A stretch of 64,000 nt of DNA from contig CM022665.1 in NCBI GenBank assembly GCA_012295275.1, positions 9,424,001-9,488,000 of the forward strand, read 5' to 3'. The position numbers were made by a program, and so were the translations under genes. Of this stretch, positions 14,076 to 35,248 are shown piece after piece. A model generated the notes under the pieces. That model was not told where the DNA came from and did no database searches. It was given only the letters and a program-made list of their open reading frames with translations. This DNA is from Chrysomallon squamiferum (lineage: Eukaryota; Animalia; Mollusca). Position 1 is the first letter of the stretch. Each line of letters opens with the position of its first letter.

Positions 14076-14207
14076 TTAAAACGTCATGGCGTCTTTCATT
14101 ATGTGACTGATGAACTTGAAGAGATCCGACCACGCCTGCTCCAGTTCTGGCGTCCATCTGTCCCCCAAGACTGGCTGAATAGCCCAGATAAACTGAGGCC
14201 CAATCAA
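14076..14207 (-). CDS. GbX: Globin X-like gene, shared terminal exon 3 (helices G7-H)
   Basis: Not in the ORF track; read by hand. Acceptor TTACAG| at 14209-14208, phase 0 (globin G7.0 intron, 871 bp). Encodes LIGPQFIWAIQPVLGDRWTPELEQAWSDLFKFISHIMKDAMTF then TAA (14078-14076). DRWTPELEQAW matches the globin X GH/H motif. Confidence 0.95.
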   Translation of the reverse strand: MIGPQFIWAIQPVLGDRWTPELEQAWSDLFKFISHIMKDAMTF

Positions 14208-15078
14208 CTGTAACATAAAAACAGTGCTCTGAATGATAAAGTAAAACAAACTTTTCTATGATGTTTCAAAATTATTATTATTATTATAGTCGTTGTTCTT
14301 GTTCATGTTGTTGTTGTTGTTTTTATTAATACTGTTAATGTCTTTAATTATTAGCATGTAATCTGTCATTTATTCTGAATCATGGTTATATCCATTAGGT
14401 ATTCAAAGAAATGTGTCTTGCAGGATCCTAGGTTGCTGCCTAACCTAGACAGTGTTAGTGTGTTTGAGAATTAGAAGAGTTTGAGTAGATCTTACTCCCA
14501 TAATTAGCCGATGGAATAATCAGTGCGTCATGGTGAACGATACTATTATTAAAGGAGTCATTGTTTTATTTAACTTCTCACTTATTTGTGGTAATGCGGG
14601 ATACATAGTAACCGTTGCTGATTTATCGTTAGTTAGTTGTAACAGAATAGCAGCGATATTTTTTTATTGCGTTTGTAACTATACTAACAATGCGATGATT
14701 AATATTTTCTGAACGTACACCTTGTTTTGTGTCACAGCTATGGCTTATTGCTGTAACACGTGTTACGAAGTGTATTAGAAATAAGCGTTTTTTCACGTCA
14801 CACATAAACAGCTTATGATAAACACTCGAGACAATGTTTCCCCACAGTCTCCAAAACCAATCACGGAGTAAACTGATTTCTTATTATAATGGCTGCTAAT
14901 AATCAAAAACACAAAAACGGTTTTAATTAGCATTGACTATTAAACATTTTTGCTTGCTATGAATATATATATATATGTGCATAAATATGGATAATAATTT
15001 CTTTCCTCGAGGGAGGGTAAGAGTTCAAGCAAGTATTCACGCAATCATGTTCATATTACTATTGAAACCCATACTCAC

Positions 15079-15304
15079 ATCAATGTAATCAACCTTTGCA
15101 CTGTACATGACGTGACGCGATCCCAGGTCGTGCAGCATGTCCTGCAGCTTTTTAGGTTCGTTGATTCGTGCAAGGCACTTCTCTACGGTGCCCATTACTC
15201 GCAGTGCATGGGACCTCAGCTGATTGCTGTACTTCAGATCTTCCATTGATTTACCTTTGAATGGCTCAAACACATCCTGCACATCTGGATGAGTTTCAAA
15301 CAGT
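15079..15304 (-). CDS. GbX: Globin X-like gene, shared exon 2 (helices B13-G6, heme-binding core)
   Basis: Acceptor TTTTAG| at 15306-15305 and donor |GTGAGT at 15078. The 226 nt encode LFETHPDVQDVFEPFKGKSMEDLKYSNQLRSHALRVMGTVEKCLARINEPKKLQDMLHDLGSRHVMYSAKVDYID, with CD1 Phe, distal His E7 (SHAL) and proximal His F8 (SRH). LFETHP and LRxHxLRVM match vertebrate globin X as remembered. Confidence 0.95.
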
Positions 15305-32725: not shown

Positions 32726-32838
32726 TCTCTCTCTCTCTCTCTCTCTCTCTCTCTCTCTCTCTCTCTCTCTCTCTCTCTCTCTCTCTCTCTCTCTCTCTCT
32801 CTCTCTCTCTCTCTCTCTCTCTCTCTCTCTCTCTCTCT
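32726..32838. repeat. (CT)n microsatellite
   Basis: Read directly. Similar CT/GA tracts lie near 4902-4978, 26260-26325, 30298-30345, 41215-41288, 44996-45084, 50826-50931, 53010-53087 and 59905-59970. Confidence 0.95.
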
Positions 32839-35003
32839 GTCTCTTTATTCTCGCATCTGCTCCCAGCCTAATAGTAAGTCATGCTAATATCGAATTATCC
32901 TTTGTGAAATATCTGCTCAGTAATGAACATCATAAATAATCATGCGTCTGTTTATTTACCCGTTTGTGTGTGTTCAGTGACTGTGAGTCTTTCGACAGTC
33001 AGAAAGTGAAACACATTTTTTTTGTTTATACAAGCAATGATGCAGATAAATACGATAAATAATCACGTATCGATTGATTAGTACAGACCTTTTATACTCT
33101 TAGATGAAGGGGGAAATAATCAAATAATAATAATAATAATAATAATAATAATAATAATAATAATAATAATAATAAGGATGATGATGATAATAATACGATA
33201 AGAGAAGCATTGAGAAAACAAAATATCATAATCATCACCATTTTATTTTTAATCATCTGACCAGAAAGATGGAAAACATGAAATACATCTTCCTACACAA
33301 TACATGGATGAATCATCTATCTGGAAATTTTCACGAGATTTTCTCTTTTGTGTCGCTTAATCTAGAGAACTATCACTAAACCTTGACTCACTGCTGCTTG
33401 ATTACCTCGAGAAAACTTTGTCTACACATCACTGAAAATCATAATGGTAAATGATGCTTCCTTCAGTAAGATAACCCAACAACAACAGAAAAACACACAC
33501 ACACACACACACACACACACACACACACACACACACACACAAAAAAGAAATATATATATATATATATATATATATATATTATATTAGGTAGGTATGTATG
33601 CCTAAAGTTTATTCTACGTCATGTCTGTACCGTAATATCTTGTGTTGTACTAGAATCTTACAAGTTATCCTCACTTTTAACATAGTTTTGTTCCAGACGG
33701 ACGCCTATTTACCAATTACAAACACTGCTTTCAGGCCTAATAAATATGTCATCTCAGTAATCAAATAGAAGAGCAAGGAAAAGTTAGAGCAAAATAACCA
33801 CATTATCGCCTTCACATAAAAAAAAAAAAGAAAAAAAGAACTAACTGTTTAATCTGGTATTGTTTACCAGTAATAACGTGCTTGAATGGGACAAAATGAG
33901 TTTTTTCGCTGATGCAAAAATCCTAAAAAAAACACCCCAAAACTCACAAGTATCGCAAATAATAATTTCCATGCATGTTCCAATCCATGGACGTTTGATG
34001 CACTCGACTAGCAGTCCCTATAATGTTCTGTATAATTAAAGACAAGGACGACAATGATTTTTCTGAAGTCCTAGATCCAACCCAAAATATAATTTAGTTT
34101 GAAATTGTTGTAACAGAAAATAAATGTTTCATGCCTGTACCTATTCCATTTGTGAAGATTATTAAGTATACTTAACGCTTCCTGCTAACCTGCTAATTTA
34201 AATCTCAGAAATGGAGGCAGAAAAACGACTTCGACCTTAGCTTGATGAAACAGCTGGAAAGAAATACGTGATAATGAAGCTATTAAGATCGATGTTTTCT
34301 TCACTGTCAGTGATAATTTGTTAATCTTTTGCAACCCTGATGTGATGAATTATCTGTGTGTAGTTAGAGTAATGCTGAACATTTCCTAGGCCGTTACAGA
34401 TAAAACACCTTTTGTCTGAGGAGACAATATGCATTGTGTTTTGTTGAGGTAGGCAAAATGAAAATAACAACTTTCATTTCGAAAGTGAAATAAAAACAGT
34501 AGCTTGATTTATTACTTTCAACATCATCATCATTGTCATGCTGCTTATCAACGCCATCTTCGCCAAATGACTTTAAATAAGAGTGTTTAGATAATGACTA
34601 TCGTCGTCTACGGTGAGGTCATCATCATTGTCATTATACTCATGTTTATCAATAGCTGGGATAAATACTGTAGCTTCCTTATTGGCTGCAGCTAAATCTA
34701 TCCTATCAAAAAATAAATAAACCAACAACAACAACAGTAACAGCAACAGTAATAACAACAACAACAACAACAACAACAACAACAACAATAATAATAATAA
34801 TAATAATAATAATAAAATATATTCCAAAAGCACAACACATAGTTTCTTCATATTTCCATAATGATGAGAGCCTTCTCTTCTGTAGTCACAGATCCGCGCC
34901 TGTGAAACTACAGCCTATGTATAATAAATATTTTCAATACGTATTAATTTCTTCAAATAATCAGTTATTATGTAATGCCTAATATTTTATCTATATTACT
35001 TAC

Positions 35004-35248
35004 TTCATGAACATGACGACCCCAACTTTGTTCATATCCGCCTCTATGTAGCTCCAAGATTCTGCAACCAACTTTTTCTGCTCCTCTGTGAAACTTGGTG
35101 CCGTTTGCAACGAATCTTTTTGAAACACAGGTGAATCACCTGAATTCATCGTACCATTTGTCGTAAGGTATTTTTTGGCACCTGCACTGGTGTTACAGTC
35201 CACCTTTCTGCCAGCCAATTTAGATTTCTTAGAATGATGTCCACCCAT
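35004..35248 (-). CDS. GbX: Globin X-like gene, alternative first coding exon 1a (N-terminal extension + helices A-B)
   Basis: ATG at 35248-35246 gives MGGHHSKKSKLAGRK...FTEEQKKLVAESWSYIEADMNKVGVVMFM(K). The exon ends AA|GTAAGT (GT at 35003-35002), phase 2, i.e. the globin B12.2 intron. It joins exon 2 in frame (AA+A = Lys) to give a 200-aa protein. Confidence 0.88.

Follow-up and report, generated by a model that had tools for sequence, protein, structure and literature searches.

A 64,000-nucleotide stretch of the genome of the vent snail Chrysomallon squamiferum (contig CM022665.1 of assembly GCA_012295275.1, positions 9,424,001 to 9,488,000), hereafter the window, carries on its minus strand a gene that is likely of the globin X type, in which three tandem first coding exons precede a single set of downstream exons:

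35004..35248, minus strand: first coding exon 1a (V1), with a myristoylation-type MG/Ser6 start, a polybasic tail, a K-x-Y-L motif and helices A-B up to B12, phase 2
30585..30844, minus strand: first coding exon 1b (V2), with MG/Ser6, Cys4 (a candidate palmitoylation site) and helices A-B
24425..24660, minus strand: first coding exon 1c (V3), with MG/Ser6, no N-terminal Cys, few basic residues and helices A-B
15079..15304, minus strand: shared exon 2, single, 226 nt, from B12.2 to G7.0, with the CD1 Phe and the distal and proximal His and no E10.2 intron
14076..14207, minus strand: shared exon 3, single, with helices G-H and the stop codon

Each first exon opens with ATG GG, stays open and ends in phase 2 before a donor (GTAAGT, GTGAGT and GTGAGC after 1a, 1b and 1c, respectively), and joining them in silico to exons 2 and 3 across introns of 19699, 15280 and 9120 bp up to exon 2 yields in-frame proteins of 200, 205 and 197 residues. 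All of these values, from the exon coordinates to the product lengths, had been given in a first-pass annotation of the window and were reproduced, and its further claim that exon 2 and exon 3 each occur once was borne out when the whole window was searched in four ways: by tblastn with the peptides of the five exons, by tblastn with the collected proteins, by a six-frame search with a hidden Markov model (HMM) of 31 homologues, and by blastn/nhmmer with the exon 2/3 DNA. Together these found exactly three first exons, one exon 2 and one exon 3 in the 64 kb; the tblastn of exons 2 and 3, a check which that annotation had proposed, returned one copy of each, and no additional or decayed copy of either exon was detected in the window by tblastn, HMM, blastn or nhmmer, the next HMM match having an E-value of 1.3. 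A profile of the three exon ends recovered the three at E ≤ 4e-24 with the next segment at 0.66, a partly circular result, and the independent 31-sequence HMM found the same three at 2e-18, 3e-11 and 8e-10. The locus thus has the layout by which variable-first-exon genes are recognized, namely tandem paralogous 5' coding exons in the same phase before one constant set.

Exon 2 matches the Pfam Globin family at an E-value of 1.1e-13, and the CD1 Phe, E7 His and F8 His (F94, H114 and H146; helix numbering follows myoglobin) are invariant in all 31 aligned homologues. It is identical at 75/75 residues to the Gigantopelta aegis globin XP_041351125.1, and the shared part as a whole (exons 2 and 3) is identical to the Gigantopelta globin at 115 of 118 positions, as against just 54/82 for exon 1a (compared with Gigantopelta P0001), figures that suggest a related species for the window, probably a fellow peltospirid-type vent snail. 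Platynereis gb_IIIA shows 63% identity to exon 2, and loci bearing an E10.2 intron show up to 77% over 35 residues. With clade III globins as its closest named relatives, and bilaterian globin clade III being globin X (PMC7771090), the gene is likely globin X-type. The introns at B12.2 and G7.0 are both present, while exon 2 is uninterrupted and the E10.2 intron typical of globin X (GbX) is absent; among ten related loci, five break at exon-2 residue 35 (E10.2), four are uninterrupted and one is without introns at these positions, and secondary loss of the E10.2 intron is reported for some GbX genes (PMC7457136). The identification of the gene as globin X in the first-pass annotation is accordingly upheld by its relatives and by two introns and not by the third; because of that missing intron, and because our trees took in only homologues found in this analysis, we prefer the label "globin X-type". 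Compared with the known clade III globins (Platynereis gb_IIIA and Gigantopelta XP_041351125.1), the gene shares the globin fold, a long unstructured N-terminal tail whose start is of the acylation type and the B12.2 and G7.0 introns, but has three alternative first coding exons instead of one, lacks the E10.2 intron and carries a Cys near the N-terminus in only one of its three tails. A scan of metagenome contigs gave 15 loci, none of them from a close relative. A model of the Gigantopelta orthologue resembles cytoglobin and neuroglobin folds. In it residues 1-42 have no structure, helix A spans residues 55-69 and helix B residues 72-86, so that the splice site falls within helix B; no close relative was found in the PDB, where the best Foldseek identities were 19-27%. 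A second GbX-type paralogue (here A) is present in Gigantopelta, Haliotis and an ENA species (P0013, P0087, P0009) and absent from the window, and the homologues also include multi-domain globins (P0083, P0088 and P0142, of 1842, 1001 and 635 residues), the last of which opens with an acylation-type MGC and continues with a series of repeated globin domains.

The flanks of the three exon regions show no DNA similarity apart from simple repeats, which argues that the exon copies are old. Over the last 30 codons (helices A-B) the proportions of synonymous differences (pS) in the three pairs are 0.81, 1.05 and 0.71, close to saturation, against proportions of nonsynonymous differences (pN) of 0.29, 0.23 and 0.34, and the bootstrap share with pS ≤ pN is at most 0.0035 in all three. 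As pairwise rates cannot date selection, we regard the comparative evidence as the stronger. A profile of the three exons picked out 3 of 53 proteins of similar length but not the orthologues of 1b and 1c, which an unindexed HMM search of 1.84 billion proteins recovered among its 65 matches. These orthologues, P0085 for 1b and P0084 for 1c, are intact open reading frames (ORFs) running from ATG to donor, with MG and Ser6, from a second (ENA) species. P0085 matches 1b at 39/84 positions overall and 25/30 in helices A-B, and P0084 matches 1c at 42/74 overall, at all of the first eight residues and at 23/30 in helices A-B, with tree support of 100/99 in both cases; the 1a orthologue, P0078, matches at 57/81 overall and 26/30 in helices A-B. 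For all three the recorded ENA contig has a length of 366,989 bases, an identical figure from which we infer that they share one contig, and the paralogue-A exon P0087 lies on another. A recent expansion specific to the window species was rejected, a clade of the three window exons alone having a p-AU (approximately unbiased test) of 0.0005, and the cassette therefore predates the split from the second species. Exon 1c groups with the 1a lineage (support 93/95), and 1a is, on these comparisons, the conserved, ancestral-type exon. On the rates and the orthologues, the three first exons are old and under purifying selection.

The same data bear on the possibility that 1b and 1c are disused leftovers of earlier tandem genes that lost their exons 2-3 by deletion. 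Their branches are long relative to 1a, whole-gene tandem copying is the usual route in the family (Mya arenaria has several whole-gene copies with near-consecutive accessions), the gaps of 4.2 and 5.9 kb could have held the 1.2 kb exon 2-3 unit, and Gigantopelta is listed with the 1a form only. However, this would require two clean and recent deletions, and no exon 2/3 remnants were found in the window; the ORF, MG, Ser6 and donor are intact in both exons, and the orthologues keep the ORF, MG and Ser6 in a species whose 1a is 30% diverged. In a neutral simulation of 5000 runs, with indels ignored, an ORF with its MG and GT survived in 2.8% of cases at 0.2 substitutions per site and in 0.5% at 0.3. 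We consider this origin improbable. Even less credence attaches to the idea that the assembler collapsed or dropped the exon 2-3 copies of what are really three ordinary tandem genes: the window is gap-free (it contains 0 N characters), collapse should remove or break the middle first exons and not leave them as neighbours separated by unique DNA, and near-identical exon 2-3 copies would have to accompany first exons saturated at synonymous sites. Furthermore, Gigantopelta shows no second near-identical core, its other match being paralogue A at 86/118.

Within the exchanged segment, A12 Trp, B6 Gly and B10 Phe, which matter only within a complete globin fold, are identical in all three window exons and in 6/6 across the two species. 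Exons 1b and 1c each keep ten of the 15 family-conserved helix columns, the other five changes being conservative, and 1c carries B9 Ile and B11 Leu, as does its orthologue P0084. The conservation of core-packing residues, which would not be expected without the rest of the fold, speaks against 1b and 1c being expressed as stand-alone peptides of about 80 residues that stop in the donor site. It is true that each ORF does stop at its phase-2 donor, but many first-exon ORFs of ordinary relatives end at the same stop, which can for that reason be regarded as a by-product of phase-2 GTRA donors, and we see hardly any likelihood of such peptides.

The tails, by contrast with these residues, differ, and part of their differences recurs in the second species. 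MG and Ser6 occur in all three exons and, on a reading of the motifs, a Cys within ten residues in only one. Exon 1a and P0078 are without an N-terminal Cys and have five basic residues at positions 2-15, 1b and P0085 have Cys4 in common, and 1c and P0084, with their first eight residues in common, have two basic residues. Loss of the polybasic patch in both derived exons was considered and rejected, the orthologues showing loss only for 1c. A K/R-x-Y-L motif, possibly for sorting or binding, occurs in the unstructured tail of exon 1a and of 20 of 26 homologues; 1b, 1c and the X2 isoform of Pomacea lack it. The first-pass annotation had pictured a swap of part of the globin fold itself onto one heme-binding core; the exon does end inside helix B, but since all three exons retain A12 Trp, B6 Gly and B10 Phe, it is chiefly the putatively acylated tail and the surface of the helices that vary. 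In light of identical pocket and packing residues in the swapped part and differing tails, we propose that the swap likely serves differential membrane targeting or expression and not heme chemistry.

Comparable isoform pairs occur in other molluscs. Among the proteins P0001-P0077, three pairs differ in their N-termini, which are paralogous, and are identical from the B12/B13 boundary onwards: the Pomacea canaliculata isoforms XP_025105346-7 (X1) and XP_025105348 (X2), with an identical remainder of 119 residues, and X1/X3 and X2/X4 of Ruditapes philippinarum LOC132731634, with one of 120 residues; the other 11 pairs in the list of 14 join nearly identical orthologues or alleles. These isoforms are automated RefSeq models, and RefSeq isoform labels usually rest on transcript alignments. 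The layout is hence not unique to the window locus, at least as automated annotation lists it. Both sets resemble the vent-snail gene in having paralogous first exons, among them one conserved and one fast-evolving, and a protein identical from B13 on; they differ in having two exons and not three, and in the separate origin of their derived exons. That the derived exons arose just once in molluscs was rejected (p-AU 2.5e-5 and 0.0001), and similar duplications likely arose independently in the apple snail and the clam. In the exon-1 tree the Pomacea gene, unlike the window gene, falls with paralogue A. In Ruditapes (P0024, P0025, P0067, P0072) two first exons are combined with two exon-2 versions that differ at two residues. 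A further clam-like protein, P0034, has a diverged first exon on a conserved core and may be another alternative-exon isoform.

On this evidence, we propose, at a probability of roughly 0.8, that the locus is one globin X-type gene in which three tandem, diverged and intact first exons are each spliced alone, so that the three resulting globins have one heme core in common and differ in their predicted lipid-anchor tails. This was also the essence of the first-pass annotation, one gene with three alternative first coding exons, which purifying selection, the second-species orthologues and the RefSeq isoform pairs make the best reading. We consider it probable that all three isoforms are made. 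Each first exon would be spliced singly onto the shared exons 2 and 3, and its tail would set membrane affinity and location. Three anchor types may be envisaged on the two-signal model of myristoylated proteins: a myristoyl plus polybasic anchor for 1a, a myristoyl plus Cys4 palmitoyl anchor for 1b, and myristoyl only, hence a weak or reversible anchor, for 1c. The result would be a membrane-bound globin handling redox reactions or reactive oxygen species (ROS), placed in different membranes or cell types with an unchanged heme pocket. Vertebrate GbX is anchored via acylation of Gly2/Cys3, and this anchoring matters for ROS protection (PMC7475203, PMC4524481).

Several observations weigh against this proposal. 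The junctions 35004>15304, 30585>15304 and 24425>15304 are predictions from the genomic sequence, and acylation is predicted from motifs alone. The second-species evidence covers the first exons only and places them on a shared contig by inference, while the placement of 1b leaves standing both a grouping with 1a (p-AU 0.06) and one with paralogue A (0.15). Gigantopelta aegis has only a 1a-type protein in the protein collection, without an isoform label; by the tree it should have inherited 1b and 1c, and low or narrow expression, or loss, would explain why they are not listed. None of 23 candidates among longer proteins was a full-length protein starting with exon 1b, a weak negative, and the protein collection held no exact copies of the three window ORFs. 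The Ruditapes case is weakened by its two exon-2 versions, which may reflect a duplicated exon 2 or a haplotype artefact. Finally, the net charge of the 1b tail is 0 here and +5 in P0085, so low charge is not a conserved feature.

The last point also favours an account in which all three globins are made but what matters is their separate promoters (by tissue, stage or hypoxia), or ligand kinetics altered through the helix A-B surface, instead of lipid anchoring. The MG/Ser6 start is the same in all three, and among the 15 conserved helix columns 1b and 1c each have five departures from the family consensus, those of 1c taking in B9 Ile and B11 Leu; yet the helix changes are conservative, B10 is unchanged, and Cys4 of 1b and the first eight residues of 1c are the same in both species, in tails that otherwise drift. 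We regard this emphasis as rather unlikely, and it is compatible with the exon-exchange proposal.

As to how one first exon would be chosen, use of two in series was rejected in silico, where none of 35 AG sites within 300 nt upstream gave an open product, and each product would therefore contain one first exon. A further part of the locus lies in upstream DNA:

30845..31060, minus strand: upstream of exon 1b; holds a poly-T tract, and acceptor-like AG sites precede the ATG by 9, 27 and about 205 nt

The AG site about 205 nt before the 1b ATG is followed by GTAAAA, which could be a donor, and the region is a possible non-coding leader intron. A parallel with the protocadherins would call for a promoter at each first exon. 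AG acceptor-like sites precede both 1b and 1c; TATA-like strings near 1a and 1b sit in AT repeats, and there are none near 1c. Choice by separate promoters or leaders seems to us somewhat the likelier arrangement, and a mutually exclusive cassette behind a shared leader is conceivable at somewhat less than even odds. A degenerate minisatellite (24754-25031) lies directly upstream of 1c and could affect its promoter or leader.

The design itself is known: multiple-variable-first-exon genes have tandem paralogous 5' exons before one constant set, of which each product uses one (PMC3338513). The globin gene shares this arrangement with the clustered protocadherins, UGT1A, plectin and nNOS, and differs from them in that it has three exons rather than dozens, encodes an invertebrate globin, and has its junction inside helix B of a small single domain rather than between domains. 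The best functional analogue is KChIP, in which variable N-termini on a constant core direct cytoplasmic, myristoylated or palmitoylated targeting (PMC3973911); this family is unrelated, and the globin exons are clear duplicates that include two helices of the core fold. The closest globin precedent is the mollusc Lucina pectinata HbI, for which alternate first exons and promoters have been proposed (PMC4732748), but there the alternate exons are non-coding and the protein is unchanged. Human myoglobin transcript variants, in the sections of one source that deal with them, are not described as duplicated coding exons (PMC7475203). In a largely open-access full-text literature we found no description of a globin with duplicated coding first exons, and the author of the first-pass annotation likewise knew of no such case. 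A recurrent first-exon cassette in globin X thus appears undescribed. Globins are a textbook case of diversification by whole-gene duplication. Surprise at the cassette is tempered by how common tandem exon duplication is, affecting 7-17% of metazoan genes (PMC3342872).

More tentatively, and at slightly under even odds, we posit that in molluscs the ancient B12.2 intron has repeatedly, on three or more occasions, served as a boundary between modules, with the targeting tail and helices A-B duplicated into UGT1A-like globin X cassettes. In the vent-snail lineage, on this view, a conserved cassette of three exons would encode three kinds of lipid anchor (polybasic, palmitoyl and myristoyl-only), a code that directs a single heme core to distinct membranes or tissues. 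The cassette would give a concrete use to the B12.2 intron, whose adaptive value has been called unknown (PMC7457136). One gene would likely yield three globins through exchange of an exon that ends inside helix B and, with tails that differ on one and the same heme core, offers a natural experiment on what membrane anchoring does for globin X. Gene-family clustering has been based on one protein per gene (PMC8136487), and globin surveys of that kind would miss such isoforms.

Elsewhere in the window, 56579-56868 on the plus strand is likely a TMEM179-like first coding exon in divergent orientation to the globin gene; the TMEM179 neighbour named in the first-pass annotation is supported by a feature-based look-alike (cluster TMEM179/179B, 0.92) and not by Pfam, which gave no match. 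On the minus strand, an ORF at 53632-53976 matches FLYWCH weakly, at an E-value of 0.0019 that misses the cut-off, and is likely a remnant of a Mutator-type transposon, a class of element with which FLYWCH is associated.

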